Shown here one piece after another: positions 693-20,030 of a stretch of 64,000 nt of DNA. Numbering within the stretch: position 1 is the stretch's first letter; each line of letters starts with the position of its first letter. Source of the DNA: Dehalococcoidia bacterium. Its GTDB lineage: Bacteria; Chloroflexota; Dehalococcoidia; DSTF01; JALHUB01. Below the pieces are notes generated by a model. It was not told where the DNA came from. It did not search any database and worked only from the letters and a program-made list of their open reading frames with translations. The stretch spans positions 4,014 to 68,013 of the forward strand of contig DAOULP010000114.1 of assembly GCA_034420175.1 (NCBI GenBank), written 5' to 3'. The position numbers and the translations under genes were made by a program.

Positions 693-828
693 TCAATTGA
701 CCTCTTAGAGTAGACTCGGATGCCCCGCCACATCCTGTGCGGATTCTAGCACAAGTGCGCGGCTCCTATGATGTCTCGGTGACATAGCCCCGTTGCACTT
801 CTCCTGGCCCTCGCCGCACGCTGCTGCC

Positions 829-1146
829 ATGCCAGACCGACACCCCCTGACCCGTCCCGCCTTCGTCGAGGAGCTGCAGCAGAACGCTCCTCTCAGGTGG
901 CCTGCGATTTGGGGCTTGACCTGTGCCCACATCGAGGCGTGCCTTGAGGCCACGTACGCTGGGCTGGAGTACCTGCTGGCCATCCCAGAGATGCACCGAA
1001 CCCGGCTGAAGAGGGAGATGAGGCAGGTGCTGAGGGTGATAGTCGAGCAGGGTCCCGAGGGGTTGGCCCGATTGCACGAGCGCGGGTGCCGGGAATCGCC
1101 GGGAGCCGAACGACGGCGTTGCCGGGAGAGGCGACCGTCAGGCTAG
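829..1146 (+). CDS. Small hypothetical protein (~105 aa)
   Basis: ORF 793..1146; the internal Met gives MPDRHPLTRPAFVEELQQNAPLRWPAIWG... It is divergent from the left-edge gene. No motif, weak support. Confidence 0.2.
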   Translation: MPDRHPLTRPAFVEELQQNAPLRWPAIWGLTCAHIEACLEATYAGLEYLLAIPEMHRTRLKREMRQVLRVIVEQGPEGLARLHERGCRESPGAERRRCRERRPSG

Positions 1147-1202
1147 GTCGTCAGCGTTGCATTGGCGACTCCGGGCGCGTGCCCAGGCTCTGCCGAATTG
1201 CG

Positions 1203-2195: not shown

Positions 2196-2365
2196 CTCCG
2201 TCGTTTACGATTCGACCTGCAGCATTATACTCGCTCCGCATGGTTCCGTGGACGTGTTCTGTTCCCTCGCGCTCTTGCTGCTGAAAGGTCAGGGAACAGG
2301 CCGGCCCTGGTAGAGGCAGCAGGTGGCCTCGCCTCATCAGCCTTCGCCGGTAGCCAAGGAAGGGA

Positions 2366-3364
2366 CTACACCCCTATCGCCTCCGCCACCTTGCCCCAGC
2401 CACGGTCCTCCTGCCCCTCCAGCCGCCTGAGGTACACCGTCGTCACCGCCAATGAGGAGTGGTCCAGGAAGCGGCTCACGTCCTCCACCGTCTCCCCCAC
2501 GTCCCGCCTGAGCTTGGCGGCGGCGTGGCGCAGGATGTGGACCCCGGCCGGGGGCAGTCCCGCCTTCTTGAGGTACCGCCTGAGGTTGCCGTAGAAGGTG
2601 CCGCTGGTGACGCCGCGGCCGTTGCGGGTGCTGGAGGGCCATAGGGACTCGTCCGGGCTCATGGTGGCCAGGTCCTTGCCGAAGGCGGCGAGCGTCGCCT
2701 GGATGGCCTCGAAGGCCGGGCGCGGGAGTTCCCGCTTCCCTTGCTTCCCGCCCTTGCCCCGGTAGGTGTAGAACAACCCACCTGTCTGAGAGATGTCGCC
2801 TGCCGTGAGGTTCAGGACCTCTGAGCGGCGCCGGCCGGTCAGGGTGAGGGTGAGGATGATGGCCCGGTCCCGCAGGCCGGTTGGCGTGTCCGGAACCACC
2901 TCCAGCAGCCGCCGGATCTCCTCGGCGCTGAGGCCTCGGGGCGGGCTGAGGGAGGTCTTGGGCCGCTCGATGGCGTCGCAGGGGTTGGCACCGATGATCT
3001 CCATCCGGATCAGGAAGCGGTAGAAGGAGGACAGGCAGGCCAGCCGGGCCCCGATGGTGACGGGGGAGGGCTCCTTGCCTGAGAGGCCCTTCCCGTAGGC
3101 CCAGGCGAAGACCTCCTGGCTGGTGACCTTGTCTGGGGGCTTGCCCAGGGAGCTGAAGAAGTGCTGGAGCATGCGGGAGTAGCCCTCGACGGTGCGTCGG
3201 GAGCCTGAGCGGCGCTCCTTCTCGGCGAGGAAGGCGTAGAGGGTGCGTTCCCAGGCATGGGCCGAATCGTCGTGGAATACAAGCTGGCCGTCCATCACCG
3301 TGCCTCCTTTGGCTGGGCTTGGGCACGCGCGGTCGCCCCGGTCGCTGGGTATCTCGATAGTCAT
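2366..3364 (-). CDS. Tyrosine site-specific recombinase/integrase (copy 1) with a replaced N-terminus
   Basis: C-terminal catalytic region HILRHAAAKLRRD...HSSLAVTTVYL fits the R...HxxR...Y signature. It is ~90% identical in nucleotides to the gene at 46087..47013 from codon ~38 onward. The first 37 codons (MTIEIPSDRGDRACPSPAKGGTVMDGQLVFHDDSAHA) are unrelated to copy 2. The start ATG overlaps the upstream gene's stop (ATGA). Confidence 0.85.
   Translation of the reverse strand: MTIEIPSDRGDRACPSPAKGGTVMDGQLVFHDDSAHAWERTLYAFLAEKERRSGSRRTVEGYSRMLQHFFSSLGKPPDKVTSQEVFAWAYGKGLSGKEPSPVTIGARLACLSSFYRFLIRMEIIGANPCDAIERPKTSLSPPRGLSAEEIRRLLEVVPDTPTGLRDRAIILTLTLTGRRRSEVLNLTAGDISQTGGLFYTYRGKGGKQGKRELPRPAFEAIQATLAAFGKDLATMSPDESLWPSSTRNGRGVTSGTFYGNLRRYLKKAGLPPAGVHILRHAAAKLRRDVGETVEDVSRFLDHSSLAVTTVYLRRLEGQEDRGWGKVAEAIGV
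3214..3254. repeat. 41-bp direct repeat (copy A) flanking the insertion in integrase 1; copy B at 4684..4724
   Basis: GCTCCTTCTCGGCGAGGAAGGCGTAGAGGGTGCGTTCCCAG occurs at 3214-3254 and at 4684-4724. Both copies align to integrase 2 (46935-46975). The flanks diverge in int1 downstream of 3254 and in the remnant upstream of 4684. Confidence 0.7.
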
Positions 3365-4683
3365 TGGGCCGACGGACCAGTAGCGACCGAGGGAGGCGAC
3401 CGCAACGTGGCTGGGGTCCCCTTCGCATCCCCGCGGCGCGTCACCAGCGTTCCCATGTTCATGTCCACAAGGAAGCGAGGTGAGCCCATCAACTCAGCAA
3501 AGGTCCCCATCTCAACGAGGGCTGGGAGGTACGTAGCTGCGATCGTCAAGTCGAGCGTCTCAGTAAGCCACCCTGGCGGCCGCTCATGATTCACAACGTG
3601 CCTAGCGTAACGAGCTAGACCGCTGACAAGCAGGTCGGCGGCCTGCACCAGCGGGCATTCCTCCGACTTCACCATCACTATCGATTCGACGCATTCGAAA
3701 GCGAACACCATTGTCCGACCGTTCGACAAACGCAGCTCGACGTTCGACTTGGCCCCCTTGTGGAGGTCAAACGCCCACTGATAGCCGCGAGAGAATTCCT
3801 GCGACTCATCATGATAGATGCGTACCGGCTGCATCCCGTAATGGCGCGACAGGGACTCCAGCAGAGACAGGAACGACGCGAGCACAGGGACGTTCACCGT
3901 CCCAAGGGCCCGGGAGGGAAGGCTTGCATTCACCGCTCGTTCGTCAACCGCCACCCTGTCTAGACTGGGTATCGATGCCCTGAACCAGGCCGCCAGACGT
4001 AGTTCGCCCTTCAGTTCGAAGACGGTGGTAAGTCTCAGCGCACAACGGGCCAGCCCTTCGGCATCCTGAGAGCGATAAGCTGCCGCGAATTCGTGGAGCA
4101 ACTCATCATGCATTTCGCTGATCTCGTTCGCCAGTTCCTGCTTCGTTTTCGCGTCGTTGTAGAAGTCCCAAGGAACGCGAGCGTTGTAGAAGGGGTCAAG
4201 GTACGTTTCGACGATCTTGCCAGCGATCCAGTACCTCTTCTCAGTAATGCTGAACACTGGCATCGCACCCGCTCTGCCCATCGCTCGCATGAAGTCAGTG
4301 AAGGCCGATTGGCCCTTCAGAGTTCGGACGACCTTCGTAGCATGGATCTCCTTGGCTCCCAGGCCCAGTCGTTCAGACAGCTTCCAGACGACCTGCTCAG
4401 CCCGCTGTACATACTGCCGAGGGACGAGCCACCCGCCCAATACGTACACGGGTTGGGATGCGTCAAGGAGATTGGGCCCGCTGTTGCCGGATTCATCGCA
4501 GTAGACATGGGCGGCACGGTCGAAACGCGGCGGCGCTACAGGCCGCGTTGTCCGCCGCTTCGTCCTCTTCCTCCTCTGCTGCTTCTTAGCCATGTTGCCA
4601 GCCTATACGCACGACGCAAGTAGTGCCAAGCTTGACGCGTCTGGAAGCGACTGGGGATGCTGCAGTTGTGACCCACCCGGCTG
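3255..4683. mobile_element. 1.47-kb insertion/replacement segment within the 5' end of integrase 1
   Basis: Bounded by the 41-bp direct repeats. Carries the DUF3800-like gene plus a new 37-codon integrase N-terminus. The original integrase N-terminus and promoter are displaced to 4684-4830. Confidence 0.45.
3361..4593 (-). CDS. DUF3800-like protein (410 aa) on the insert inside integrase 1
   Basis: After a basic N-terminus (MAKKQQRRKRTKRR) comes HVYCDESGNSGP, resembling the N-terminal D-E-S-G motif of DUF3800 proteins. The assignment is from memory, not an HMM. The gene lies entirely within the 1.47-kb segment bounded by the 41-bp direct repeats. Its stop overlaps the integrase start (ATGA). 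Confidence 0.5.
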   Translation of the reverse strand: MAKKQQRRKRTKRRTTRPVAPPRFDRAAHVYCDESGNSGPNLLDASQPVYVLGGWLVPRQYVQRAEQVVWKLSERLGLGAKEIHATKVVRTLKGQSAFTDFMRAMGRAGAMPVFSITEKRYWIAGKIVETYLDPFYNARVPWDFYNDAKTKQELANEISEMHDELLHEFAAAYRSQDAEGLARCALRLTTVFELKGELRLAAWFRASIPSLDRVAVDERAVNASLPSRALGTVNVPVLASFLSLLESLSRHYGMQPVRIYHDESQEFSRGYQWAFDLHKGAKSNVELRLSNGRTMVFAFECVESIVMVKSEECPLVQAADLLVSGLARYARHVVNHERPPGWLTETLDLTIAATYLPALVEMGTFAELMGSPRFLVDMNMGTLVTRRGDAKGTPATLRSPPSVATGPSAQ

Positions 4684-4869: not shown

Positions 4870-5709
4870 ATGATTGACCTGCCCCTCGACCGTGCGCTTG
4901 AAGAAGACGAACTCAACGCAGCCGTGGCGGAGGCTCTCATCAATGATCGTTTGCATCCAGATGTCGATGTTCCGTTCCAGGTAGGCGAGTTTCTTCCGCG
5001 ACTCGGACGCCGTGAACCGGGTTTTCAGAGCGAGTTCTTTTCGGCGAATGGCGGACAAGAAGCCTTGGACCGGAGAGTTGCCGCGTATTGCTGGCGCCTC
5101 GTCGTGCTTGGATACCTTGTCCCGGAGAGGGCAGGATTCGCTGTCACGGAATCAGGGCGCCGATTCCTGGGGGAGTGCGCCGACGACGGACACATGGTCT
5201 TGACCTCAGACGGACTCGTCCGGCGTCTAGCCGAGCGCTGCCCAGGACTGGATCCGGTTACTTCACGCTATGCTGGCCTGGCCCATGAGTGCCTCCTTGC
5301 GGGCCACTACCATGCGTCTGTTGTGTTGTTGGGCGTTGCCTCAGAGGCAGCGCTCGAGCGACTCGCGACCAGCGCCGAAAGGGTGCTGTCCGGGACGGGG
5401 ATGAGGCTCCCTCGGCGCGGTGACAGCGCGGCGCTGACCCTTGATTGGTTGGAGCAGGTCTTTGGCACTCATCGCAAAGCGATCAAGAAGCTGCTTGACA
5501 CGGCCACAGTGGATTCGCGGTGGGTGGGCGATCTTCCTCGACTCCTCGGTACTGGGACTGCCATCAGGCTCACGAGGAATGAGGCCGGACATCCCAGTGA
5601 CACAGTGATACATCGTGATACCGCATTGGGGCTCTTTGTACTCTTCCCACGGATGGCGGAGGCAGCGTTTGCCACGGCCGCTGCTCTCGACGCGGTACCG
5701 TCAAGTTGA
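4870..5709 (+). CDS. Hypothetical protein (279 aa) with a C-terminal R-N-x3-H (HEPN-like) motif
   Basis: ATG at 4870. ...AIRLTRNEAGHPSDTVIHRD contains R-N-E-A-G-H, the Rx4H spacing of HEPN RNase motifs. The motif is short and the assignment tentative. Same strand, 250 bp upstream of the DGQHR gene. A competing minus-strand ORF (4819..5058) overlaps the 5' end. Confidence 0.45.
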   Translation: MIDLPLDRALEEDELNAAVAEALINDRLHPDVDVPFQVGEFLPRLGRREPGFQSEFFSANGGQEALDRRVAAYCWRLVVLGYLVPERAGFAVTESGRRFLGECADDGHMVLTSDGLVRRLAERCPGLDPVTSRYAGLAHECLLAGHYHASVVLLGVASEAALERLATSAERVLSGTGMRLPRRGDSAALTLDWLEQVFGTHRKAIKKLLDTATVDSRWVGDLPRLLGTGTAIRLTRNEAGHPSDTVIHRDTALGLFVLFPRMAEAAFATAAALDAVPSS

Positions 5710-5960
5710 CTTCGCATCTGCACGTGATGAACCTCACGGTGGAGCGGTCGGTTGTCCATCACCATGACCTGATAGTATGCCATGGAGGAACGCGAGCATC
5801 GAGCCCGCAACTTCCATCATCTGGTGCGTGGGATCGACCCGCGGTGCGGGCGACCTCTCGGCTTGCCCACATCACAGTTGTCAGCGGTGCTCATACACTA
5901 GGACGCACCGCGGCTGTATAATGCCACCAGGGTTGTGCCGTTGGAGTAGGTGCAGACGCG

Positions 5961-7478
5961 ATGAAAAGGATTCAGGCCATCCGAGTAGCGCAGTGGCTCG
6001 AGCTATGGGACAAGTTCGAGTATCGGGTAGAAGCTCGGCAGCGGAAGCCAGACCCCTATTTCTACGTGGCGTCCTTTCCGGCCGTTCTGTTGAGAAGGCT
6101 TTCTGGGGTACGGCGCCGCGTTGCCAAGGGACCACGAGCGGAAGATATCGGGATTCAGCGAGGGCACGACGTCGAACGTTCCGATGCCATCGGACGCTTT
6201 GTTCGTGCAGGATACCCGTGGGCTACCCTCAATACCGCGCAGCAGGAGCGATTCCCGGAACTCCAGAAGCCTGGCTGGCTCCCAACCGCAATCGTCGCGA
6301 ATCTGGTCAGCGATTCAACCGAGCGAAGCGGCCAGAGGCCAGATCCCCGCGATCTGATCCAGCTCGAGACGGAAGACGACGGAACGGCGGAGCTCATTCT
6401 TCCTGGAGGCGCCAAGTCGCCCAGATGGAAGCCGAAGGGGAAGATCCACCCAATCGAGATCATCGACGGCCAGCACCGGCTCTACGCCTTCGAGGAACAG
6501 GAGCCGTTGAAAGGGGACTTCGAACTGCCGGTAGTTCTCTTTTGCGACCTCGATATCAGCTGGCAGGCCTACTTGTTCTGGACGATCAACATCACCCCCA
6601 AGCGAATCAGCCCCTCACTAGCCTACGACCTCTACCCGCTGTTGCGCACTGAGGACTGGTTGCAGCAGGTGGAAGGCCCCATGGCCTATAGAGAGACCCG
6701 GGCGCAGGAGCTAACAGAGGCACTCTGGGGACATCCGGAAAGCCCTTGGCAAGGCCGGATCGGAATGCTTGGTCGGGAGCGAGGAAAGGTGACGCAGGCG
6801 GCCTTCGTTAGATCGCTCACCTTGAGCTTCGTTCGTGGCTGGGAGGGAGCCGGCAGGCGCACGGGTGGTCTGTTCGGCACAGCCCTCTCGAAGGATCAGA
6901 CAGATGTGCTGCCGTGGAGTCGTCCGCAGCAGGCGGCCTACCTCATCTTCCTGTGGTCGAAGCTGGAGGAAGCGATTCGGGAATCCAGGGATGAGTGGGT
7001 GACATATCTTCGCGAGAAGACACCTGTCGATGGAAATGTGCCCGACAGCGACCCCGCGTTTACTGGAAGGTTTGCCCTGCTGGCGACCGACCAGGGAGTG
7101 AGAGGCTTCCTGCAAGTCTGCAATGACATCTCCTACGTCATGAGGGACGAGGCGAACTTCCGTGCCTGGAGACGGGATCCCAAGAAGGATGCTGTGGACT
7201 ACGGGGAGGTGTCGGCTGCCCTTCGCGAACTCCGAACAAAGGAGACAAGGATCTCTAGGTTCGTCAGTCGCCTCACCAGTGAAATGGCGAGCTTCGACTG
7301 GCGATCAGCTGCGACCCCAGACTTGCCAGAACAGGTCTTCCACAAGCAGGCGATCTACCGAGGCGGGCCCGGCTACAAGGAAGTCCGCAGGCAGCTTCTT
7401 CATCACCTCGCTCGTGGCAGCGTCGGAGACCTCGCCTCGAGCGCTCGGAAGGTCATCCAGGCGATGGGTTACGAATAG
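5961..7478 (+). CDS. DGQHR-domain protein (DndB/DpdB/SspB-like, ParB-nuclease superfamily)
   Basis: Literal motif ...IHPIEIIDGQHRLYAFEE... A GGAGTAGG RBS precedes the ATG. 505 aa. The next gene starts 4 nt after the stop. Confidence 0.85.
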   Translation: MKRIQAIRVAQWLELWDKFEYRVEARQRKPDPYFYVASFPAVLLRRLSGVRRRVAKGPRAEDIGIQRGHDVERSDAIGRFVRAGYPWATLNTAQQERFPELQKPGWLPTAIVANLVSDSTERSGQRPDPRDLIQLETEDDGTAELILPGGAKSPRWKPKGKIHPIEIIDGQHRLYAFEEQEPLKGDFELPVVLFCDLDISWQAYLFWTINITPKRISPSLAYDLYPLLRTEDWLQQVEGPMAYRETRAQELTEALWGHPESPWQGRIGMLGRERGKVTQAAFVRSLTLSFVRGWEGAGRRTGGLFGTALSKDQTDVLPWSRPQQAAYLIFLWSKLEEAIRESRDEWVTYLREKTPVDGNVPDSDPAFTGRFALLATDQGVRGFLQVCNDISYVMRDEANFRAWRRDPKKDAVDYGEVSAALRELRTKETRISRFVSRLTSEMASFDWRSAATPDLPEQVFHKQAIYRGGPGYKEVRRQLLHHLARGSVGDLASSARKVIQAMGYE

Positions 7479-7481
7479 TCG

Positions 7482-8792
7482 ATGCCAGTGGGCTCGTTGC
7501 CTCCACGGGCGGTTGTCCTGGCTCAAGCCGGCTCGCGAGCTTGTGTAGCTGACACGCTCAGAAGAACACGTCAGCGTCTTCGTCGCTGGAACAGGTTCCT
7601 CAACAAGAAGCATCCATATCGCCGCGACGTGGTGGACGCCCTGAAACACCTTCCAATCGACGCCGGCAGACTCTGCGAATACATCGCCTGCTCAGGTCCC
7701 TTGCATCTACTTGATGGCTGGGGCTACCTGTCGCGGGCGTTCGACAGCGTCGCCCACGGCGACCGCGCTGCAGCCATACACCTCGCCTACTACGCTGAGT
7801 TGCGAGCCGCCGTGTCATTGCTCGCTTCCGAAGGCATGGGGGTGTTCAATACGCGCCACGTCGCGGTTGACGCAAACAGCAACGCTATGGACTGGGCGGG
7901 GAGGCCAACACACAAGGCTGCCTGGGAGCTTCTGACTGCCTGGGCAGACGAAAAGGGTCGCGCCGAAACAATTCTGTCAGCCATCCGGGTGGAGTCACGA
8001 AGCCTTGTCGACTGGCTGATGGTGGCCAATGTCTCGGCAAACGTTAGCTCTACCGTCGCCAGTGACTGGCTCAGCGCCTGGAGTGTCGATCTCCAGGATT
8101 TTACCGAGGATCTTTCCCTTCGCAACGAGATGAGCTACCGTCCCAGCCGCATTCGGGCGCCAGAGCCGCCTCCCGTCAACGTGGAGGAGGAGATCCTGGA
8201 CCCCATTTTCAGAACGTGGGAGGCGCTCGAGCCATCATCCGACAAGAGTGGTATTTCCTTAGACGCAATGTTGTTGCGGCGTGCGATGGAGCACGTCTTC
8301 AAGCGCGGGTGGGCCTATGCGGCAGTCTGGGAGGACTTTGCTGGTCGGTTGGAAGGCACAGCATCGGGGGGACTACTGGAGTACTTGCTCGAAGACGAAC
8401 CGTCTGGTGCATACGTGTTCGACGCTGCGGCAGATCGCGCAACTCCGACTCGAAGGGCAGGGGCGATTCTGGCTCGTGCCATGCTGTTGCTGCGCCTCGC
8501 ATCCGCGAGCAACGCGCATCTCCTATGGACCGCCGGCGTATCGAAGGACGACCTAGCCTTTTGGTGGGAAGCGCATGGGAGGGACAGTGGACTATGGGGC
8601 GACCCCTCGGAGATCGACGATTTCGCCGACCTGTGGGCCAATGTCCGGCGAGACTTGGATGAGATCACAGATATCCTGAGCGAGGGGTCTGGGCCGAGAA
8701 CCGTCCACGAGATCTCCGCAACGATTGGTGGCCTCGCTGCCCTCACCGAGTTCACACGTGCCCCTCTCTGGCTCCTTGGGCTGGAATCGTAG
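7482..8792 (+). CDS. Hypothetical protein (436 aa), operonic partner of the DGQHR protein and the MTase
   Basis: Tightly packed: 4 nt after the DGQHR stop and 11 nt before the MTase start. No recognisable motif and no P-loop. Confidence 0.65.
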   Translation: MPVGSLPPRAVVLAQAGSRACVADTLRRTRQRLRRWNRFLNKKHPYRRDVVDALKHLPIDAGRLCEYIACSGPLHLLDGWGYLSRAFDSVAHGDRAAAIHLAYYAELRAAVSLLASEGMGVFNTRHVAVDANSNAMDWAGRPTHKAAWELLTAWADEKGRAETILSAIRVESRSLVDWLMVANVSANVSSTVASDWLSAWSVDLQDFTEDLSLRNEMSYRPSRIRAPEPPPVNVEEEILDPIFRTWEALEPSSDKSGISLDAMLLRRAMEHVFKRGWAYAAVWEDFAGRLEGTASGGLLEYLLEDEPSGAYVFDAAADRATPTRRAGAILARAMLLLRLASASNAHLLWTAGVSKDDLAFWWEAHGRDSGLWGDPSEIDDFADLWANVRRDLDEITDILSEGSGPRTVHEISATIGGLAALTEFTRAPLWLLGLES

Positions 8793-8803
8793 GGCGAAGA
8801 GGC

Positions 8804-10066
8804 ATGCGTCCACACGGTATCCCTAGTGCCGGGGTTCTCCTGGGCGATGCCCGTAGGCTAAGAGAGTACTTTGGCTCGCTTCGGCCACAGCCACGGACCG
8901 TCATAACATCCCCGCCATACCTCGACCTACAGGACTACCGGGTAGCCGGCCAGATTGGCTTCGGCCAGTCTCAGGAAGAGTATCTGAACGACTTGCGCGA
9001 CGTGTTCCAAGCGTGTGCCGAGATCACGACCGAAGATGCCACGATGTGGTTGGTAGTTGGCGCTGTGCGAAGGAACGCTGAGCTGGTCCAGCTGCCAGCC
9101 TTGCTGGCTCAGTGCGCTCACGCCGCGGGCTGGATCCAGCGTGAGCAGGTTACTTGGGAGAAGGGCAAGTCTTTGCCGTGGACCAAGCACGGGGAGTTGC
9201 GCGACGTGACCGAGCAGGCACTGCTCTTGTCCAAGACCAAGTGCTTTCGCTTTGACCTCGACCAACTGCTGTCGTCCGAGCCAAGTTCCGTCTGGTGGCG
9301 CCGGTACCCTGAGCGCTACTCGCCGGCCGGCCGACGCCCCACCAATCTCTGGAGCATTCCCATCCCCACGCAGGGTTCCTGGCGGGACGGACCCAATCAC
9401 GCCTGCCCGTTCCCACAGGAATTGACGTACAGGATGCTCGCTCTCGTCACGGCGGCCGGAGACGCAGTACTGGATCCCTTCGCCGGCGTGGGCTCAGTTC
9501 CCGCCATGGCCAACGCGATGGGGCGCGCAGGATATGGCCTAGAGATCTGCGAACGTTACGTTGCAGCATACCCAGCCACCCTGCGGACTGCACAGCACTG
9601 GCTCAAGAAGCGCCATGCTGACAACAGACAGGACAGGGAGCGGCGGGCAGAGTTCTCGCGCGTGATCATCCAACTCCGCCTACTGAAGTATGCACGGCTC
9701 GTGGCGTCCCATCTCAGGAAGCGGGGGAACTCTGTGGTCTGGCTACGCGTTCGAAGACGCCCGACCACCCCCAGCGAACCCTTCAAGATAGTCGTGGCTG
9801 ACTTTGACATAGTCGTGGAGGACGGAGAGCCAGATCCCCAGATAGTCGACGCCGCGACGGCCGCAGCAACGAAGCGCCCCTTGTCGAAGTTCGGCATTCA
9901 GCCTCACTTCCGAATCTCGAGAGCTAGCGACGCCGTGCGTTCAGGCTATTGGTATCGAGGAGGGAAGTTCTGGCTTACCCCAACCAGGACGCCGCCGGGT
10001 GGCGATGGTCCACACGTCGTAGCGAGCTTCTGGCCCAATGCTGACGGCCTGGGAGAGCAGCATTAG
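8804..10066 (+). CDS. Beta-class DNA methyltransferase (N6-adenine or N4-cytosine), with a ~170-aa C-terminal extension of unknown function
   Basis: Motif IV TVITSPPYLDLQDY precedes motif I VLDPFAGVGSV...GRAGYGLEI. Motif IV before motif I is the beta-class order. Confidence 0.85.
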   Translation: MRPHGIPSAGVLLGDARRLREYFGSLRPQPRTVITSPPYLDLQDYRVAGQIGFGQSQEEYLNDLRDVFQACAEITTEDATMWLVVGAVRRNAELVQLPALLAQCAHAAGWIQREQVTWEKGKSLPWTKHGELRDVTEQALLLSKTKCFRFDLDQLLSSEPSSVWWRRYPERYSPAGRRPTNLWSIPIPTQGSWRDGPNHACPFPQELTYRMLALVTAAGDAVLDPFAGVGSVPAMANAMGRAGYGLEICERYVAAYPATLRTAQHWLKKRHADNRQDRERRAEFSRVIIQLRLLKYARLVASHLRKRGNSVVWLRVRRRPTTPSEPFKIVVADFDIVVEDGEPDPQIVDAATAAATKRPLSKFGIQPHFRISRASDAVRSGYWYRGGKFWLTPTRTPPGGDGPHVVASFWPNADGLGEQH

Positions 10067-11174
10067 GCCTGTCCCCTTGGCGCCGCTGAGCAGTTAGTGA
10101 CGTTGCCCCCGAGTGCTGACTACGTCCAATCTTCGGTGTCGACCCTTGGCGGGTTGCGACAGGGTCGCTGCCGTGTAGCGGGCCCTATCCCCTCTCTGTA
10201 GGGTGGTGCGCTGGGCACAGCAAGACAGGCTGACCCGACGTATCCCCTTCGTACCCACTAACCCCACGTGGTGTGGCATCGGAGTCCGGCGTGACTCTGC
10301 GGGTCAGCGCCGGACTCCAGACGGGCCATCGGTGTCCTGGTGCCGGCGCGTCTTCTGCGTATTCCTTGGGCCATCCCTGTGTGACGTGCCTGACAGAGCG
10401 GCCCGGACCCAAGAGGCTACCCTGTGGTCACTGATCGTGCGTGCGATACGGGCAGCATCGGTGGCGTGGCACCGTCCCCAACAAGCGCCGCAGGGACAGG
10501 GAGAATGGTCACCCAACAACTGGCGCAGATCATCATTCAGGAACGTAGGCCAGAGGTCGACGGACTCCACCTTGAGCAGCAGGCGCAGACGGACGGTCCG
10601 GTGACGGTGACAGGGCTGCGCTTCTTGACCAGCGCCACCGATCTGCCAGCACGCGCGATTCAGGAGCCGGGCACTACCATCCGTGTCTGGAACGTTCACA
10701 CCTTGAGTTGCCTGACGCAGCAGGGTCCCTCGCCAGTACGGGGTAGACCAGCCCGACACACGCCCTAACCGCGCCCTCGGTCTTGGAGTCCAAGCGGCTT
10801 GCCCGCTCAGGCGGCGGCGAGGAGGGACAGCCGCAGGCGGTGGATTGGACCCACGCGAAACTGATTGGGGATGTTGGAGAACTCCCCTTCGAAAGGGAGA
10901 ATCCTCCTTTCCTACGGCCGCGTCAATGTGGACTGAAGGCAGGGGACGACTTCGGCACCAGTCCCTGCCAGCAGCATACGCAGTACGCAATGGCGAGTCT
11001 GATTCTGACCAGCTGGGTCTGCCCGATGCCTGCAACAAAGTGCAGCTCTCCCGCGGTCTTGCAGCGCAGAGCACTTTGCTCTACTATAGGCAGCGTTCTC
11101 CTCAGGATACCAGCATCAGACTAGTGCCGGGTGGAAGTGCACAACCTGGCGCGTTGGCACGGAGGTCGGCAACG

Positions 11175-14100
11175 ATGCAGCCTTCTCCCAACCCCAAGGC
11201 AGCCTTCGTTGTGAAGCACCATGAGGCCCTCTGTGAGGTCGCGGAGCGCATCAAAGCAGCTCGACCCGATCTGATCGTCGCGCTGGCTCGGAAGGGTCCG
11301 CGCCTCGGGGAGTTAGCTGCCGAATTTGGGATACCGATCTTCCCCGGCGGCGTCCCGGTGGTCTGCGAAAGAGCTTTGCCGTTTCTTGATGCTGGTTCGC
11401 TGCGACGCGTTGTCGTCTTTGACGACGCCGTCATCTGGGGCGGCACCTTGAGAGATACCATCGCGAATCATGTTCTTGAGGGTGCCGACGTAACTCCAAT
11501 CGTGCTTGCGGCCTCTAGATCGAGAGATCCTTCCTTGGTTCCCGGACTGCAACACGTGCTTGATCTCTCTGAGCAGGAAGCGACGGCGTTTAGTACGGAG
11601 CTAGTCGAGGCCTTCCACCTCCTGGCCAAACCCTACAGCGTCGACCACCCCATACTTGAAGTACCACTGTCCCACATTTCAGCGCTGTCCGAAGACGACA
11701 TCTGTGAAGCAGCGAGGAACGATCTGGCTGCCCAGGTCTTCAGACTCACCCAGCCGTTTGAGCGACGCGATGGCCTCTGCAACGTCGTACTGAATCGGCC
11801 AGAACTGCCAGGGTGGCATCTGGTCTGTGGGCCGACATCCGAGCCCTTGCATCTGTTCAAGATAAGATTCTTTGGGAATCGAGGAAGAGATGTTCTTAGG
11901 GTCACCCCCATGCTCATCTTCCGAGCACGCCGGGATGACCTAGCCTCTGGCAAGTTCGTCGCAGCCAAGGCCTTTCCTTCCCTGGCGTCCATCTTTGCAG
12001 ATGCGAGGCAGTTGATTGCCCAAAGCAGCGGCTTTGACGACGAGGGGCTATGTGCTCTCTACAGGCTACAGATGTATCTCGCAGAGCTGTCGCTCGGACT
12101 GCTTTTCGTCCTCTGGCTATGTGATCGTCGTTCCGTGGAGATCCCCGCAGAGATTCAGTCCTGCCTTCCTGCTTGGGACGCCGAGCTTGTCCTGGGGGAG
12201 AAGCTGGCCACGCGAATCCGGGCCGAAAGGAGTTTGCTGGGGGAGGCGATCGCAGTGAGCCGCAGGCCCCATCAGCCTCAGCTGTCTTCGGAGAGTAGCC
12301 ATACGGAGCGCCACAAAGACCGCGACACCGTGTCCGAACTCGAGAGAGATTTCCCGCGCATCGGGGAACGACTGCGGGCGGGGATGTCGCGAGCCCTCTC
12401 GCTCGAGGCCAATGTGTCCGCGCTGTTGAACGCGTTGCGGGAGTGCGACACAGGGACGAGACACCTAGGTTCCTACATACCGAACCGGCTTCATTTCGGC
12501 CTTGCGTTTGGGGAAATCAAGGACATCTTGACGAGATTCGGCATCTCCTTTGAGGATCATCACCTTTCCGGAGTTATCGACTATTTGGTTGACTTCGGAG
12601 TCGGCGTGCCTCTCGTGCAGTCGCGCCCGGACGGAGTCATCGATCGGATAAGTAGGTTCGGCGAGGCTGGGCACGCCATAAGCAAACTGCGCTACGCAGT
12701 CTACACAGCTGTCAATGAATTGCTTAGCCGGCAGCGAGACCTGTCTTCCTCGCATGTTGACGCTCTCCAGCTCACCGTGGTCGACAAAGCGCTGGGCTTC
12801 ATGGCCTTGGTGGGTCAGGCCTCAGGTCAACTTCCGGTCAACGAGCTGGCAGTGAAGCTTGCCTATCATCGATATGGAATAGACTTGCAGGTCGAGGACG
12901 TGTTGAGCGAGGGCCGGCTCCTGCAATGGGCAATCAGCGAGCAGATCGTCAGCATGGATGGTCCTCGCATTCGCCCAAGTCCGACTTTCGAGCTTCGGTT
13001 CCCACCGGATGAGTCCCCCCTGAATCCGGCCATGGTTGCGCTCATTGCAGGCTCGATGCACTGGTTCGCCGATGCCTCGATTGAGACAAGGGACAGCAGC
13101 AACCGATACCGTACCGCGCTCTCCGTGACCACATGCAATACCGCCAAGAGCACAATAGCAGCTATCAAGGCGACGCTGCGACTGTGGTTTGGTGATGTGT
13201 CTCGCCAGAATGCGCAGGGTTGTCTTGACGCCCTGTATGAGGTTACGCGCCTTCTGAGTGAGAATGCCGACACCGGTCGTTTGCGAAGCGCCTCGGCGGA
13301 CCTTGACCAGCGGTGTCGGAGAGGGCCTGCCGATCTGATGAGCCAATCTCGGCTCAAGCTTGAGGTCTTCCGAGACCTCGATCAGACGCGAAGTCGGTTG
13401 CGCGACATCTATGCTCAAGGGCGAAAGCCCGGTCTTGACACCTTCTATCGCGTGTATGTCGAGCCGCTGCTTGATCCCGCGACCACGGCAGGCCAGGAAA
13501 CCGAGCTTGAGGTCTTGGAGCGGTTGGGGAAGCTCTGCCAGTCGTGGACGACCGTTCTTCGAGAGTGCTCGGACCGAGTGGACGCGGTGCTGGCGGATCG
13601 AGGGGCCTCAGGCGCGAAACTCCGGGGGGCAATCGCTGATACCAATAGGGCCGCGGACGAGTTAGGGGGCAAGTCCCGCGTGTTTCGGACCGTCACCCGA
13701 ATCCCCCCCGTCGACTTGGAGATTCAGGACCGAACTCAGTTGAGGTCAACTCTGGAGCCGGTTCAGAGCGCGCTTGCGCAACTGCTGCAGGAACTCGAGT
13801 CCCTAGTCCGCACAACGGTATTCGCGGACATAGAGGCGACCGTGGAGCCGCTTCCTGAAGACTCGTATGTAGTGACCTACGATCTGATTGCCTCGACGGC
13901 CACCGGTGATACCTATGAGGTAGCGCAGCAACGATCTCATCTGAACTCCCACATCGTTCCGTTCGTCAGAGACCACCTGCGCGAAGTGGACTGTGTGCCC
14001 ACAGGCAATGACGAGAACACCTTTGTGGTGGGAACGGCTCTGAATGCGATGCGACTGGTGGATCAACTGTGCAGCAGCTTGGAGGCGATGGGCGGCTGTG

Positions 14101-14405
14101 CGAGGGTCGGCGTTACCTCAACTGCGACCCGGCAACGGTTATTCCAAGATCGCGTATACAAGACCCTTAGCGGTCAGGCGTTTGTTGTTGCAGCGAGAAT
14201 ACGGGACCTCTACCGAGATGAACAATGGCTGAGAGACGGTAGGTCCCATGTATTCCTAGACGAAATCATGCTTCGGGATCTGAGGGGTGCCCTGGAGTGC
14301 CAAGGCTACCTGGCCTCACTGCAGATCCGGGACGACGAGCCGCGTCAACTGAGAGGAGAGGGGCTTCCCGAGGTCCGCGTATGGGAGTACGTCAGGCAGG
14401 CATGA
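11175..14405 (+). CDS. Large multidomain protein (~1077 aa): N-terminal PRTase-like region plus C-terminal nucleotidyl-cyclase-like region
   Basis: ATG at 11175 has a GGAGG RBS 8 nt upstream. The ORF-track start at 10845 gives low-complexity translation. N-terminus PDLIVALARKGPRLGELAAEFGIP...LRRVVVFDDAVIWGGTLRD matches the type-I PRTase hood and PRPP-loop pattern VxxVDDvxxtGGT. C-terminal ~170 aa YVVTYDLIASTATGD...PTGNDENTFVVG...GVTSTATRQRL...GQAFVVAARIRD follows the motif spacing of class III nucleotidyl cyclases, also seen in GGDEF and palm folds. Both assignments are by eye. Confidence 0.75.
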   Translation: MQPSPNPKAAFVVKHHEALCEVAERIKAARPDLIVALARKGPRLGELAAEFGIPIFPGGVPVVCERALPFLDAGSLRRVVVFDDAVIWGGTLRDTIANHVLEGADVTPIVLAASRSRDPSLVPGLQHVLDLSEQEATAFSTELVEAFHLLAKPYSVDHPILEVPLSHISALSEDDICEAARNDLAAQVFRLTQPFERRDGLCNVVLNRPELPGWHLVCGPTSEPLHLFKIRFFGNRGRDVLRVTPMLIFRARRDDLASGKFVAAKAFPSLASIFADARQLIAQSSGFDDEGLCALYRLQMYLAELSLGLLFVLWLCDRRSVEIPAEIQSCLPAWDAELVLGEKLATRIRAERSLLGEAIAVSRRPHQPQLSSESSHTERHKDRDTVSELERDFPRIGERLRAGMSRALSLEANVSALLNALRECDTGTRHLGSYIPNRLHFGLAFGEIKDILTRFGISFEDHHLSGVIDYLVDFGVGVPLVQSRPDGVIDRISRFGEAGHAISKLRYAVYTAVNELLSRQRDLSSSHVDALQLTVVDKALGFMALVGQASGQLPVNELAVKLAYHRYGIDLQVEDVLSEGRLLQWAISEQIVSMDGPRIRPSPTFELRFPPDESPLNPAMVALIAGSMHWFADASIETRDSSNRYRTALSVTTCNTAKSTIAAIKATLRLWFGDVSRQNAQGCLDALYEVTRLLSENADTGRLRSASADLDQRCRRGPADLMSQSRLKLEVFRDLDQTRSRLRDIYAQGRKPGLDTFYRVYVEPLLDPATTAGQETELEVLERLGKLCQSWTTVLRECSDRVDAVLADRGASGAKLRGAIADTNRAADELGGKSRVFRTVTRIPPVDLEIQDRTQLRSTLEPVQSALAQLLQELESLVRTTVFADIEATVEPLPEDSYVVTYDLIASTATGDTYEVAQQRSHLNSHIVPFVRDHLREVDCVPTGNDENTFVVGTALNAMRLVDQLCSSLEAMGGCARVGVTSTATRQRLFQDRVYKTLSGQAFVVAARIRDLYRDEQWLRDGRSHVFLDEIMLRDLRGALECQGYLASLQIRDDEPRQLRGEGLPEVRVWEYVRQA

Positions 14406-15160: not shown

Positions 15161-16018
15161 CTAGGGTAGGCTCTCACACGCCTCCGTGTCGCCGTCCCCG
15201 TCCAGTCCGTGCGGGTCCTCGGGATAGAACCGCTCGAAGAACTCTTGCGCCTCCGCCTGCGTCGCGAAGTCTTCGCAGTTGCAGTTGGTTGCCGCACATG
15301 GCGGGAGCCATGGGGTTGGCGTTGGAGTTGGAGACGGAGTCGGCGTTAGTGAGGTCGGCGTTGGCGACAAGGGCGGAGGCGGCGAGGGTGACGGAGGTGG
15401 TGGTTCGGTTCCACAAGGAGCGGTTGGGAGCCTGGTTGCGGATTCCGCTTCGCACCGCAAGTTCGTGAGGTACTCCACTTGGACCCTGACTTGCAGCGGG
15501 TTCGCGCTGCCGTGAGAGAAGGCGCCACGTAGTTCGTATTCTGGAGGATCTTCATCCCAGCAGCTGCCTTCCCTGATCAAGCAGGCCTGACGTTTCACCA
15601 TGGACGGAGCGAAGCTCTCCGGAGGCACCGACACCACCACTCGCGCCGACTCACCTTCCCCTATGACGATCGGCTCCGCCGGGAGCGTCACCGGGACTCC
15701 GTTTGCCGCTCCCTCTACAAGCTCCAGCGACTCAAGCATGGTGGAGCCGTCGCCATCGTTGACCAGGAAGGCCTCCAACTCAGCGGCATTGTCGACGAAG
15801 TAGTAGGCAACGACCTCTTCGTGAGGCGGATCGCCCAGGTCTGTCAGCACCATCTCGTCGACGGATCGCGAGAAGGTCACCCCTGCCCCGGTGATAGTAG
15901 GCGCAGGTCCCTGGAAGAAGGCCTGGTTGACCCACATCGCGTAGGCCGGTATGGCACCGATCAATGCTCCGAGTAGACCGCCGGCCGCCAGACCCAGCAG
16001 GCGTCGAAAGCGTTGCAT
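15161..16018 (-). CDS. Secreted protein with a C-terminal Excalibur Ca-binding domain
   Basis: Signal peptide [27 protein letters not shown], then a PT/SP linker ([28 protein letters not shown]), then [45 protein letters not shown] (Excalibur D-x-D-x-DG-x-x-CE). AAGGGGGTG RBS. Confidence 0.75.
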
Positions 16019-16328
16019 CGCACACCCCCTTAGAGAGAAGCCAAGGAGTGGAACTCAACCCCTTGCTCCCGGTGCCCCTTACACCCACCAACTCACAGCG
16101 TGCCGGACTCTGGGCGGCAGGCCGGGCATTCGCCGCAACGACAGCGTCTGCGTCTTTGGAGTCCCTGTGGCTTCTCACCCCCAGCTTGAGGCACACATCC
16201 CTACCTACACAAGCTCTCACAGGGCACTCCGTTCCCGTCCCCATCCAGGCGGTTCGGGTCGCTTGTGTAGGCTCCGAGGCGGGTCTGGGCCTCTGGCTGC
16301 GTGCTGGGGGGCTGATGCAAGTAGAGAT

Positions 16329-17930
16329 CTAGCCACTTATTCTCGCTTTCAGGACCCCAGACCGGTCCTGTGCGAATATAGCGATAGTGTCTGAGGAGAT
16401 TCGCTGTAGGGTTGGCTCAGACTCAGTCGGCTCAGGTTTACCAGAAGGTGGCTCTTTCGCTTGAACATTGGATAGGGCTGCAAGGAGCCTATCGTCGAGG
16501 GTCTGCTCTGCGACGTCTCTGTCTCTTGTCGTGCGCACCCATACCTCCACCGGGTGATCATTCCTATCCCGTGCCTCGACGCCAAAAAGCACATCATTTC
16601 CGCTCATTTCGATGGTGTCCGGCAGGAGCGTCACGTTCTGGAGTTGGGGCAGGACATCTCTGAGTGCGTCGTCGAAGGGGGGCAATTCGCCCCGATCTGC
16701 CGCCCGGGCCGCTAGTGTGGCCAAGAGAAAGAGATCGGCTTTGCTCCTGAACCACAACTCCCCGACTACGGGAGGCGGCTTGAGGCGATCATCCAACAGT
16801 TTCCCGAGCCACCCTGGCGGGTCAACCGAGAGTGCGTCTGCCTTGCGGTCGTAGGCTTCTGACGAGAGATCGCCGTTCTTGCTGTCTTGGTCGTAAGAGC
16901 TAGGCCGAATCACTGCGAAGGATACACCTGCATCGCTCAAGCGATCCTTCACTCGGTCTGTGTGCCCGACGCCCGTCTGCATGGCCGCCGGCGGGCCAGG
17001 AGACTGCCCGACTAGCGCCAAGGTGTTCTTGCTCATCGTGTCGGATCGAACAGAGCAGGCTTCGTAGAACCTCCTGAGCTTCTCAAGGTCTTCCTGGTGC
17101 TCGGGCTTGATTTCTGCCCCTACTTCGGCTGCTTTCGCCTTGATCTCATCAGTGCGCTCAAGTAACTCTTCGCACGAGGCGTCTAGGCTGGCATCCTTCA
17201 GCCGTTCGGACATCCTCTTAGTGAACTCATCTGTCCCAAGGATGAACTCGAGGGCTTCGTCCTCTTTGCCCTGCTCCGCGAAGTCGTTTGCCTTCAGAAT
17301 CTCCGCCTGCGTCAGACCCGCCACAGCGATCTGGTACAGATAGAAGATACTAGGATCGCCTGCATCCCCCGGCCTGATCGGGTATTCGGCCGCGTCGTCT
17401 ATGCCGGCTACGTTGACGTCGGCATAGACCAATGCCATCATTTCCGCAGCGCTAATCTCGCCGTCTTCCAAGAGTTGTACGATGGCGTCCTCGCGCGGCC
17501 CGATCGGCTGTCCCGCAGTGAACGACGGCCTATACCATCGCGTATCCAGGCTGCCGCCCTCTGAAAGAGCGCCTTCTAGTCCGATGTCTCGCAGATCATA
17601 ATCTGCGTACAAACGATTCAGCATGAGCGCTATTTCAACCTGGATGGCCGGCGAATTATGCTTTTCCTCGAGCACGAAGATGGTTCGGTTCGACGCCCCC
17701 TGTGCGACGTGCATCACTTTGCCGATATCGCCAGCAATGTCTTGAGCCATTGCCTCAAGATCGCCAGGGGTGGCTGTCGGCGCTAGTGTCGAGGCGGGTG
17801 TCAGCGTCGGTGTCGGTGCCTTCGCCTCCTCCGAGCCGCAGGCACTCATGACGAGAAGAACAAGGAGGCCCAGGGCCGCGAGCCCTATGGCCCACACTCT
17901 CTGATGTGGCGCGGAGCTGCCCGTCTTCAT
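16329..17930 (-). CDS. Lipoprotein (533 aa), unknown function; translationally coupled downstream of the TIR-HEAT gene
   Basis: MKTGSSAPHQRVWAIGLAALGLLVLLVMSACGSEE gives a lipobox, followed by a PT-rich linker. Its ATG overlaps the TIR gene stop (AGATGAAG). No catalytic motif recognised. Confidence 0.7.
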   Translation of the reverse strand: MKTGSSAPHQRVWAIGLAALGLLVLLVMSACGSEEAKAPTPTLTPASTLAPTATPGDLEAMAQDIAGDIGKVMHVAQGASNRTIFVLEEKHNSPAIQVEIALMLNRLYADYDLRDIGLEGALSEGGSLDTRWYRPSFTAGQPIGPREDAIVQLLEDGEISAAEMMALVYADVNVAGIDDAAEYPIRPGDAGDPSIFYLYQIAVAGLTQAEILKANDFAEQGKEDEALEFILGTDEFTKRMSERLKDASLDASCEELLERTDEIKAKAAEVGAEIKPEHQEDLEKLRRFYEACSVRSDTMSKNTLALVGQSPGPPAAMQTGVGHTDRVKDRLSDAGVSFAVIRPSSYDQDSKNGDLSSEAYDRKADALSVDPPGWLGKLLDDRLKPPPVVGELWFRSKADLFLLATLAARAADRGELPPFDDALRDVLPQLQNVTLLPDTIEMSGNDVLFGVEARDRNDHPVEVWVRTTRDRDVAEQTLDDRLLAALSNVQAKEPPSGKPEPTESEPTLQRISSDTIAIFAQDRSGVLKARISG

Positions 17931-18655: not shown

Positions 18656-18741
18656 GCTGAGTCCCGGTGTCGAGTCGCCACGTGACTGTCAGCAACCTCG
18701 TTACTCACAGGCTACGAGCACCGTATGAACAGGTCAACTCG

Positions 18742-19914: not shown

Positions 19915-20030
19915 ACTGGGCCTCCTCCAAGCCACGGCTACGTGGCCCTGCCAAATCCCCGGCTTCGGAGACTACTCGGTCGTCTTGCAGGCTGGCGCCC
20001 GCCGCAACGCGTCCGAGCGATCGCGACGGC

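Follow-up and report, generated by a model that had tools for sequence, protein, structure and literature searches.

We analyzed a window of 64,000 nucleotides from a Dehalococcoidia bacterium. Five open reading frames on the plus strand are present in the region studied (Table 1). A sequence-only reading of this DNA had called these five frames and quoted motifs from them, and all of the frames and motifs were found where it had placed them. B, C, the methyltransferase (MTase), and the giant protein have full-length homologues elsewhere, which implies that these four are real genes and rules out chance open reading frames of a GC-rich genome. The integrase and DUF3800 genes that precede them (2366-4593) constitute a mobile-island setting. 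A large serine recombinase is encoded farther upstream in the source contig, as is a truncated ComM.

Table 1. Genes, motifs, and intervals of the region (nucleotide positions in the window).
Feature	Position	Strand	Remarks
Integrase, tyrosine type	2366-3364	-	Phage_integrase, 9.4e-19; ~1.5 kb upstream of A
DUF3800 gene	3361-4593	-	DUF3800, 5.6e-13; weak PADLOC PDC-M04A match; between integrase and A
A, orphan ORF, 279 aa	4870-5709	+	Neighbor of the triad, outside the conserved unit
RNEAGH of A	5575-5592		aa 236-241
B, DGQHR-domain protein, 505 aa	5961-7478	+	ParB/Srx-fold, DndB/DpdB/SspB superfamily; triad core gene 1
DGQHR of B	6465-6479		aa 169-173
FxxxN of B	6576-6590		
C, protein with HEPN-fold domain, 436 aa	7482-8792	+	Triad core gene 2, directly downstream of B
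HLAYYAELR of C	7779-7805		Invariant
RNxxxY of C	8121-8138		Invariant
Beta-class N6/N4 DNA MTase, 420 aa	8804-10066	+	Pfam N6_N4_Mtase, 3.5e-30; triad core gene 3, exchangeable partner
SPPY of MTase	8909-8920		aa 36-39
FxGxG of MTase	9479-9493		aa 226-230
Spacer, triad to giant gene	10067-11174		1.1 kb; no convincing gene or RNA
Giant protein E, 1076 aa	11175-14405	+	Stand-alone, outside the triad; PRTase-like N-terminus, helical middle, class-III-cyclase-like C-terminus
PRPP loop of giant protein	11409-11450		
Cyclase-like C-terminal domain	~13827-14405		D903, D946, R1008

The B, C, and MTase genes are tightly packed. The gap on the MTase side of C is 11 nt, as reported earlier, and that on the B side measures 3 nt rather than 4 nt. 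By contrast, gaps of 252 nt upstream of B and 1.1 kb upstream of the giant gene set A and the giant protein apart from this group. Public gene calls in the 1.1-kb spacer conflict (244 aa on the minus strand versus 114 aa on the plus strand), and neither repeats nor Rfam matches below E = 0.3 were found there.

Protein B exceeded the curated cut-off of the TIGR03187 "DGQHR domain" model (69.7 versus 58.85 bits), which bears out its earlier assignment to this group, and matched Pfam DndB at 30.8 bits. It fell far below the cut-offs of the Dnd-associated DGQHR equivalog (61.9 versus 450 bits) and of the DpdB equivalog (26.4 versus 300 bits), and a desulfurase, TGT, or PAPS-reductase partner is not a conserved feature of 80 B-C loci. 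Both results agree with the earlier view that the cluster lies outside the Dnd, Dpd, and Ssp systems. Homologues of B form more than 2500 clusters, the best 120 of which share 56-78% full-length identity, and conservation reaches 97% or more at about 80 positions in 70 sequences from many phyla.

The HEPN role had previously been placed on protein A; however, the protein in which a HEPN fold was detected is C, which had been listed as an unknown of 436 aa. A is a HEPN candidate by virtue of its motif. This fold was previously unrecognised in C; the match covers about 110-125 of the 436 residues, and the remainder gave no structural match. In the second of the two invariant motifs of C, an invariant Tyr takes the place of the His in the canonical HEPN Rx4-6H, and RNase activity of C is therefore uncertain. 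The invariant polar residues of C suggest catalysis rather than scaffolding.

The MTase has SPPY ahead of FxGxG, which is the beta-class motif order, and this order and the Pfam match together uphold its earlier classification. Its C-terminal extension, earlier given as ~170 aa, is indeed present (~165 residues beyond the catalytic core) but is confined to the beta-class orthologues of ~417 aa; being clade-specific, it was rejected as a shared adapter. Beta-class orthologues that are ~50% identical adjoin B-C in 12-13 loci, and an MTase of the D12/Dam class fills this position in ~53 other loci (Pfam MethyltransfD12, 2.6e-47 and 3e-13), where the MTase gene often overlaps the end of C, stop codon included, by 3-36 nt.

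Of 80 genome loci, about 78 have B immediately 5' of C. More than 10 phyla contribute to this set, with an archaeon among the carriers (Chloroflexota, Acidimicrobiia, Alphaproteobacteria, Bacteroidota, Cyanobacteria, Planctomycetota, Patescibacteria, and Methanoregula are represented), and the genes flanking these loci are otherwise unrelated among genomes. The linkage is also kept in metagenome, plasmid, and viral-contig loci, and the pair has spread widely by horizontal transfer. A co-oriented MTase adjoins B-C in ~66 of the ~74 complete loci, this count being limited to loci with sequence on both sides, and ~7 complete loci have neither type of MTase. A plasmid record of Zymomonas mobilis ZM4 contains the intact triad, its MTase being of the Dam family, and there the triad adjoins DUF4433/macro (DarTG-type) genes. 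An effector pair that stays the same while the methylase family beside it varies is the signature of restriction-modification (R-M) logic, and we read the DGQHR/ParB-like protein B, the HEPN-fold protein C, and the DNA methylase as a putative, widespread R-M-like cassette. The earlier intuition that a DGQHR protein and an MTase form a modification/restriction-like pair fits these data.

The sequence-only reading had further united all five genes in one defense or modification system or operon, in which the giant protein would act as a signaling or depleting effector and A as a HEPN RNase. All five genes are co-oriented within a single mobile island, and the identical arrangement occurs in assembly L002, although its 100% identity implies that L002 is the same organism as that of the window. 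However, A and the giant protein are missing at all of the ~90 other loci with a B-C pair, and the closest relative of the triad, whose B is 78% identical, keeps the gene order and ends at the MTase. Comparison of gene neighborhoods likewise placed giant homologues, and the one relative found for A, at sites that lack B and C. That relative is 71% identical, retains the motif, and lies on a metagenome contig; A had no match in Pfam, NCBIfam, PADLOC, or PDB. The absence of co-occurrence largely refutes a five-gene system, which we now regard as very improbable. Instead, A is an orphan gene unrelated to the triad.

The giant protein retrieved only itself in a word-index search, and an exhaustive phmmer search returned 209 representatives among 1.84 billion proteins, mostly of 1000-1200 aa. 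At the PRPP loop, the family profile matched type I PRTases (1vdm at 4.4e-6 and ~50 other PRTases, a partial match of ~40 residues), and the C-terminal profile marginally matched class III cyclases (E ~1e-3; 1ybt at 8.8e-4 and Ma1120 at 3-5e-3), with an invariant D, D, and R of the family aligned with the metal-binding Asp pair and Arg of the cyclases. These searches back the earlier description of both termini. The long helical middle (~700 aa) contains the most conserved block of the protein, at aa ~430-570. No Pfam or PADLOC matches were found, and a single-sequence AF2 model had a pLDDT of 36.6, too low to be informative. Homologues in five other contexts stand alone; two of these contexts share one integrative-element backbone, and in one a homologue is beside a complete Pycsar system. 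Judged from its sequence and contexts, the giant protein forms a single-gene module of its own, with predicted PRTase-like and class-III-cyclase-like domains, located on integrative elements and in defense islands, and we infer that it is a nucleotide-signaling or nucleotide-depleting conflict protein. It is possible, if unlikely, that it is instead a housekeeping or sensory enzyme, in which a PRTase fold, like those of PurR and PyrR, senses PRPP or nucleotides to control a cyclase that forms cNMP. The family profile also matched the PRTase-fold regulators PurR and PyrR, one homologue is alone amid metabolic genes, and a cNMP-binding effector is neither fused nor consistently adjacent in the giant-family contexts. 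Against a housekeeping function, the family is rare and patchy, three of its six contexts are integrative elements or defense islands, and the ShosTA, PsyrTA, and retron defense systems use PRTase domains as toxins or effectors.

We assign a probability of roughly 0.58 to the reading that the region comprises an R-M-like triad (5961-10066), an independent giant PRTase-cyclase module, and the unrelated orphan A. In such a triad, the MTase would mark host DNA and thereby protect it. ParB/DUF262 modules are NTPase sensors that switch on fused nucleases in GmrSD and SspE (PMC12065111), and binding of both ATP and GTP has been reported for a DndB-like protein (bioRxiv 10.1101/2025.10.10.680097). 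By analogy with its ParB, DUF262, SspB, and DpdB relatives, B would bind or scan DNA in an NTP-dependent manner, and upon meeting unmodified DNA it may nick the DNA itself or activate its obligate partner C. C would be the effector, whose HEPN-fold domain, with its invariant non-canonical R-N-x3-Y and invariant His, Glu, and Arg, may cut nucleic acid, most likely RNA, and so abort the infection or block expression of the invader.

The triad could instead be a modification machine. B would then assist or regulate the methylase through loading, nicking, or ATPase activity, in the manner of SspB, DpdB, and DndB, the HEPN fold of C would serve regulation or scaffolding and not act as a nuclease, and the mark would be used by an unlinked reader. 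Where DGQHR proteins have been studied, in three systems, they belong to the modification and not the restriction side, DndB being a regulator, SspB a nickase, and DpdB an ATPase. Two reports give DndB as a regulator (PMC4507180, PMC10853773). The missing HEPN RNase catalytic His of C and the lack of a classical DNase fold in the triad proteins also favor a modification machine. We nonetheless consider it distinctly unlikely, because two unrelated MTase classes interchange around a B-C pair that is constant and far more conserved, MTases of the Dam type and beta class normally work without a helper, and the polar residues of C point to catalysis. Moreover, the SMRT methylome of Z. mobilis ZM4 contains only three m6A motifs, each assigned to other enzymes (PMC8432527), and thus no extra motif. 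A strain from the same study that lacks the other restriction systems accepted all DNA tested (PMC8432527). Set against the plasmid triad, the methylome and the DNA acceptance also argue against constitutive, site-specific R-M in that strain, presuming that the methylome strain carries and expresses the plasmid triad. Still less probable, in our estimation, is a mainly selfish addiction (post-segregational killing) cassette, in which loss of the methylase exposes the host to B-C and phage protection is incidental. Consistent with addiction, the triad is distributed patchily over phyla, occurs on plasmids, on integrative islands, and on contigs from viruses or prophages, and has C and the MTase tightly coupled in translation. 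However, many copies are flanked by housekeeping genes and have no mobility genes in their vicinity, and the addiction mechanism overlaps the R-M-like reading, since classical R-M systems behave likewise.

The nearest precedent of the triad is a line in Table 1 of Anantharaman et al. (2013; PMC3710099), a computational note of operons for a HEPN protein (MAE_28990 family), a ParB nuclease, and a DNA methylase. These operons match the triad in their three components (HEPN fold, ParB superfamily, DNA methylase), and they were read by the same logic, as containing an R-M-associated HEPN effector; their description is that single line, which leaves the ParB partner undescribed (PMC3710099). C is set apart from the MAE_28990 family by the listed motif, which is the canonical Rx4-6H rather than RNxxxY, and by the Pfam model, as none of 67 C-family members matched HEPN_MAE_28990 or other Pfam HEPN models at E up to 1. 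B shares with DndB, SspB, and DpdB the DGQHR domain, the QR and FxxxN signatures, and co-encoding with a DNA-modifying enzyme. Unlike the Dnd, Ssp, and Dpd systems, the triad lacks DndACDE, SspACD, and DpdA/TGT, its modification would be base methylation, and its invariable partner is a HEPN-fold protein.

GmrSD, SspE, BrxU, and Menshen NsnA resemble the proposed triad in pairing a ParB-fold NTPase with a nucleic-acid-cutting effector that reads DNA modification (PMC12065111, PMC4619093). In these proteins, DGQQR/DUF262 is fused to an HNH/DUF1524 DNase, cutting is modification-dependent (Type IV), and there is no cognate methylase, whereas the triad has a DGQHR protein, a separate HEPN-fold effector, and a linked methylase. 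Classical Type II R-M systems share with the triad a compact cassette, a site-modifying MTase of a standard class, horizontal mobility, and exchange of the MTase class around a constant "R" module. The triad differs from them in containing no PD-(D/E)XK, HNH, GIY-YIG, PLD, or half-pipe endonuclease, in having an "R" side of two proteins with ParB and HEPN folds, and in that the carrier ZM4 lacks a matching methylation motif. In its predicted class-III-type cyclase core, with a pair of metal-binding Asp and one Arg, the giant protein resembles Pycsar PycC (a direct profile comparison with a PycC was not significant), and in its PRTase-type PRPP loop it resembles ShosT, PsyrT, and retron effectors. 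Unlike Pycsar, it has no cNMP-binding effector partner, and unlike both groups it joins the two domains in one 1076-aa chain through a helical middle of ~700 aa. Domains of each type serve in anti-phage systems.

All five plus-strand ORFs that a sequence-only reading of this region had joined into one system are present in the window, together with every motif quoted for them. The claim that they belong together did not survive comparison with homologous loci. In seven contexts of homologues of the DGQHR protein (B), each queried in tblastn searches with the five proteins of the window, B, the protein C encoded downstream of it, and a DNA methyltransferase (MTase) were found in 7/7, and the upstream ORF (A) and the PRTase-like/cyclase-like giant protein in 0/7. 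The nearest relative, whose B is 78% identical, keeps B, C, and MTase in this order, with nothing further. Scanning the C-family alignment against one genome per species gave 80 loci, in Chloroflexota, Acidimicrobiia, Alphaproteobacteria, Bacteroidota, Cyanobacteria, Planctomycetota, Patescibacteria, Actinomycetota, and Methanoregula. In ≈78 of the 80, C is immediately preceded by B; none carries A or the giant protein, and ORF clustering showed that, besides methylases, no gene family recurs next to B-C.

The methylase itself varies. By iterated HMM searches that allowed for partial tblastn ends, ≈53 loci carry an adjoining co-oriented D12 MTase, often with a 3-36 nt overlap with the C stop codon, and 12-13 carry a beta-class SPPY enzyme, as in the window; ≈7 complete loci have neither methylase class, and a further 6-7 are cut by contig ends. 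An apparent C paralogue beside C, which emerged from the ORF clustering, proved to be an N6-adenine methylase of the D12/Dam class (Pfam MethyltransfD12, 2.6e-47 and 3e-13). This single-linkage artefact was caused by an 826-aa ORF at one locus (about 8000-10500) that apparently fuses C with the downstream D12 methylase; the fusion may be genuine or may stem from a frameshift in the assembly.

The three genes are also carried on plasmids of Zymomonas mobilis and Rhizobium tumorigenes, where they are annotated "DGQHR domain-containing protein", "hypothetical protein", and "Dam family" or "DNA adenine methylase". They further occur on nine IMG/VR contigs detected with the C-family alignment; viral contig scans with the single C sequence or with the alignment of the giant-protein family gave no match. 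The constancy of B-C, the methylase counts, and the plasmid and viral copies together imply that the unit is B, C, and an exchangeable methylase (the triad, 5961-10066), and that it is horizontally mobile. In Z. mobilis ZM4, plasmid pZZM405 (NC_013788.1) carries an intact DGQHR/C-homologue/Dam-family MTase set at 4983-8645, ≈2 kb from DUF4433 and macro (DarTG-type) genes.

B is a DGQHR-family protein, as had been read from its motif. It scores 69.7 bits on the DGQHR domain model TIGR03187 (curated cut-off 58.85), with DGQHR at aa 169-173 and FWTIN (FxxxN) at aa 206-210; its Pfam DndB match is confined to aa 165-221 (30.8 bits). Over 70 sequences from many phyla, ≈80 positions show an identity of 97% or more, Q66, R67, D169-R173, F206, and N210 among them, a conservation that is unusually tight for a mobile gene. 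Homologue clusters number more than 2500; for the best 120, identity over the full length is 56-78%. Nine Bacteroidota loci have the order D12 MTase-B-C, and B in these is ≈725 aa long, with a ≈220-aa N-terminal extension that has no Pfam match.

C has no match in Pfam, NCBIfam, or PADLOC, and none of the 212 matches that make up its family is assigned a Pfam domain. Positions invariant in 76 sequences include H75, W80, H100-L-A-Y-Y-A-E-L-R108, H144, D210, R214, and Y219. AlphaFold2 with a 67-sequence alignment returned a confident model (pLDDT 92.8, pTM 0.93) that shows the HEPN four-helix up-down bundle, and Foldseek searches of PDB and BFVD found no whole-chain match to it. C is therefore, by this model, a HEPN-fold protein with large extra helical regions. 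It lacks the catalytic Rx4-6H motif: the invariant motif is R214-N-x3-Y219, and the Arg of R95-x4-H100 in the window protein is not conserved in the family. None of 67 C-family members matched any Pfam HEPN model; this includes the HMM of HEPN_MAE_28990 (E up to 1), whose operon context of a ParB-family gene and a methylase is present here. In the NCBI annotation, C begins only at 7629 (387 aa), which leaves out 7482-7628. The 436-aa form starting at 7482 is backed by homologue alignments and by high pLDDT from about residue 10.

The MTase is, as proposed earlier, a beta-class N6/N4 enzyme: it matches PF01555 (3.5e-30), and SPPY (aa 36-39) precedes FAGVG (aa 226-230). Its C-terminal extension is restricted to ≈417-aa beta-class orthologues, which ruled out an adapter domain shared among the MTases.

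The sequence-only reading had placed the HEPN component in A. The HEPN fold of C implies that the HEPN component of the cluster is C, the protein then listed as a 436-aa unknown, and probably not A. A carries the HEPN-like motif RNEAGH and has no match in Pfam, NCBIfam, PADLOC, or PDB, and its comparison with the C family by hhalign was not significant (probability 1%). Its one relative, from a metagenome, is 71% identical and keeps RNEAGH, and the neighbors on that contig are unrelated to the triad. We conclude that A is an orphan neighbor.

The giant protein likewise has no match in Pfam, NCBIfam, or PADLOC. A word-index search found only the protein itself and thus no close relatives; exhaustive searching gave 209 representatives, mostly 1000-1200 aa long. 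At the N-terminus, a 50-sequence family profile matches ≈50 type I PRTases, only over positions ≈72-126 (1vdm, 4.4e-6), as well as PurR and PyrR, with a weak match to the preceding "ARGG"-type loop; D83, D84, G89, and T91 of the PRPP loop are at least 90% conserved. At the C-terminus, a profile built from the final ≈190 residues matches the class III cyclases Rv1900c (1ybt, 8.8e-4) and Ma1120 (3-5e-3). In this domain, only D903, D946, and R1008 are invariant, and in the alignment they fall on the two metal-binding Asp residues and on the "AAR"-helix Arg; the cyclase Asn is not conserved in the family. Thus, the PRTase and cyclase guesses are both backed at the level of remote homology by these profiles, but members of the C-terminal domain match no Pfam model, including Guanylate_cyc. 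The most conserved block of the protein is aa ≈430-570, and the profile of this middle region (aa 405-600) has no match in PDB and no detectable relative; a winged-helix reading of it was dropped on that result. The single-sequence AlphaFold2 model (pLDDT 36.6) was of no use for fold assignment and backs neither domain.

In five contexts of homologues, the giant protein is a stand-alone gene, in each case with no DGQHR gene beside it. Two of the five share an integrative-element backbone (D12 MTase, DUF87, relaxase, integrase, serine recombinase), one lies amid metabolic genes, and two are on short contigs. In one integrative-element copy (7001-12330 of its locus), a 35%-identical homologue is 540 nt upstream of a Pycsar pair, PycTIR (2e-94) then PycC (2.5e-96), which is complete without the homologue. 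The giant protein differs from Pycsar in having neither a PADLOC PycC match nor a cNMP-binding gene beside it in the window, and comparing its cyclase-like domain with a PycC by hhalign gave no significant similarity. In the ShosTA, PsyrTA, and retron systems, PRTase domains are known to act as toxins. We regard the giant protein as unrelated to the triad and as an independent, probably conflict-related single-gene module. Its putative domain pairing is rare and undescribed, and the two domain types are each employed on their own in known anti-phage systems.

Upstream of A are genes for a DUF3800 protein and a tyrosine integrase. On the source contig (CAZWDW010000003.1, assembly GCA_964632905.1) upstream of the window (1-2672), a truncated 366-aa ComM/Mg-chelatase-like gene and a large serine recombinase gene adjoin with a slight overlap. 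These features together imply that the region is a mobile island. The adjoining pair suggests an insertion of the entire island in comM; a search of the window for the missing 3' part of that gene, which would fix the end of the island, found nothing. The mobile or mosaic region may reach ≈41-43 kb of the window. A defence-island-like run of minus-strand genes lies at 15161-22077. In the 1.1-kb gap between the MTase and giant-protein genes (10067-11174), we found no RNA family, repeat, or terminator, and no convincing gene; two public annotations call different ORFs there, on opposite strands.

Features of the window, with positions in nucleotides
Feature	Position	Strand	Remark
DUF3800 protein, between integrase and A	3361-4593	-	weak match (6e-6) to PADLOC candidate family PDC-M04A
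A (279 aa)	4870-5709	+	orphan neighbor
B (505 aa)	5961-7478	+	DGQHR protein
C (436 aa)	7482-8792	+	HEPN fold (AlphaFold2 model)
MTase (420 aa)	8804-10066	+	beta class
Hairpin-like segment	10269-10328		miRNA matches at chance level only
Giant protein (1076 aa)	11175-14405	+	PRTase-like and cyclase-like
Excalibur-domain protein	15161-16018	-	
533-aa protein	16329-17930	-	no assigned function; overlaps TIR+HEAT gene
TIR+HEAT protein	17927-18655	-	
MBL-fold protein	18742-19935	-	PADLOC LmuA/ComEC-like matches
Caspase	20031-20882	-	
SNase+Excalibur nuclease	21244-22077	-	
RHS-repeat toxin (1744 aa)	28205-33439		
Prim-Pol/PriCT primase	37999-40638		typical of integrative elements
tRNA-Arg (CCG)	42831-42906		sole tRNA gene of the window

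The main finding is a widespread, uncatalogued DGQHR-HEPN-methylase triad, which, as far as gene content and sequence comparison go, appears to be a new variant of restriction-modification (R-M)-like, modification-based defence. It is common and very widely spread: the homologue clusters of B come from over 10 bacterial phyla and an archaeon, and also from plasmids and contigs of prophage-like type. Even so, Pfam does not include C, NCBIfam naming gives "hypothetical protein", and PADLOC does not list the triad. In the literature on DGQHR, DndB-like, MADS, and MAE_28990 proteins, the only precedent found is one table line, on HEPN (MAE_28990 family)/ParB/methylase operons, in a 2013 survey (Anantharaman et al., PMC3710099, Table 1). 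The observations of the sequence-only reading are confirmed, and its interpretation is partly supported.

A constant two-protein module combined with interchangeable methylase classes is a hallmark of R-M logic. Published comparative work already records HEPN domains within R-M operons, ParB/DUF262 modules are NTPase sensors that activate fused nucleases in GmrSD and SspE (PMC12065111), and a DndB-like protein binds ATP and GTP (bioRxiv 10.1101/2025.10.10.680097). From these points together we infer a mechanism, step by biochemical step, in which the MTase would mark self DNA, B would sense unmarked DNA in an NTP-dependent manner and may nick it, and C would act as the effector. The missing HEPN catalytic His of C argues against this mechanism. 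Known DGQHR proteins act on the modification side of their systems, a role that likewise speaks against it. A further objection comes from Z. mobilis ZM4, whose SMRT methylome lists only CAGN4CTG, GAAGN7TCC, and GANTC, each attributed to another enzyme (PMC8432527), and so no m6A motif that fits the Dam-family MTase of pZZM405, although the sequenced strain may differ in plasmid presence or expression. In a Z. mobilis strain that lacks the other restriction systems, none of the DNA tested was rejected (PMC8432527). As a hint from the methylome, the methylase may act other than as a constitutive, site-specific enzyme.

A bolder reading, less likely than not at a probability of roughly 0.3 for its two parts jointly, is that the triad represents methylation-gated immunity of a new class and that the giant protein is a self-contained signal-and-effector defence protein. 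In the triad, a DGQHR ParB-type NTP switch would read methylation and license an RNxxxY HEPN effector, as an RNA-targeting or abortive "restriction" arm rather than a DNase; in the giant protein, the cyclase domain would control the PRTase toxin domain in cis.

Comparison with known systems agrees with the earlier proposal that B is not a Dnd, Dpd, or Ssp component. B scores 61.9 on TIGR04172 for Dnd (cut-off 450) and 26.4 on NF041060 for Dpd (cut-off 300), with a partial PADLOC DpdB match of 7e-6; with respect to Ssp, this weak DpdB match is all that PADLOC returns. In the 80 loci, neither a TGT-like gene, as in Dpd, nor sspACD-type partners (cysteine desulfurase, PAPS-reductase-like protein, ATPase) are conserved beside B-C. 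Because B scores far under the equivalog cut-offs for DndB-type proteins and for DpdB and has no conserved Dnd, Ssp, or Dpd partner, we place it outside those systems. Compared with Type II R-M, the MTase is present and a known REase fold is absent. If the triad is a defence system, it would add an R-M-like class in which ParB and HEPN folds take the place of a classical endonuclease in the effector arm, and would offer a tractable three-gene case, for example on the Z. mobilis plasmid, for ParB-type NTP switches that read DNA modification. Base methylation would then be the fourth DGQHR context, besides Dnd, Ssp, and Dpd.
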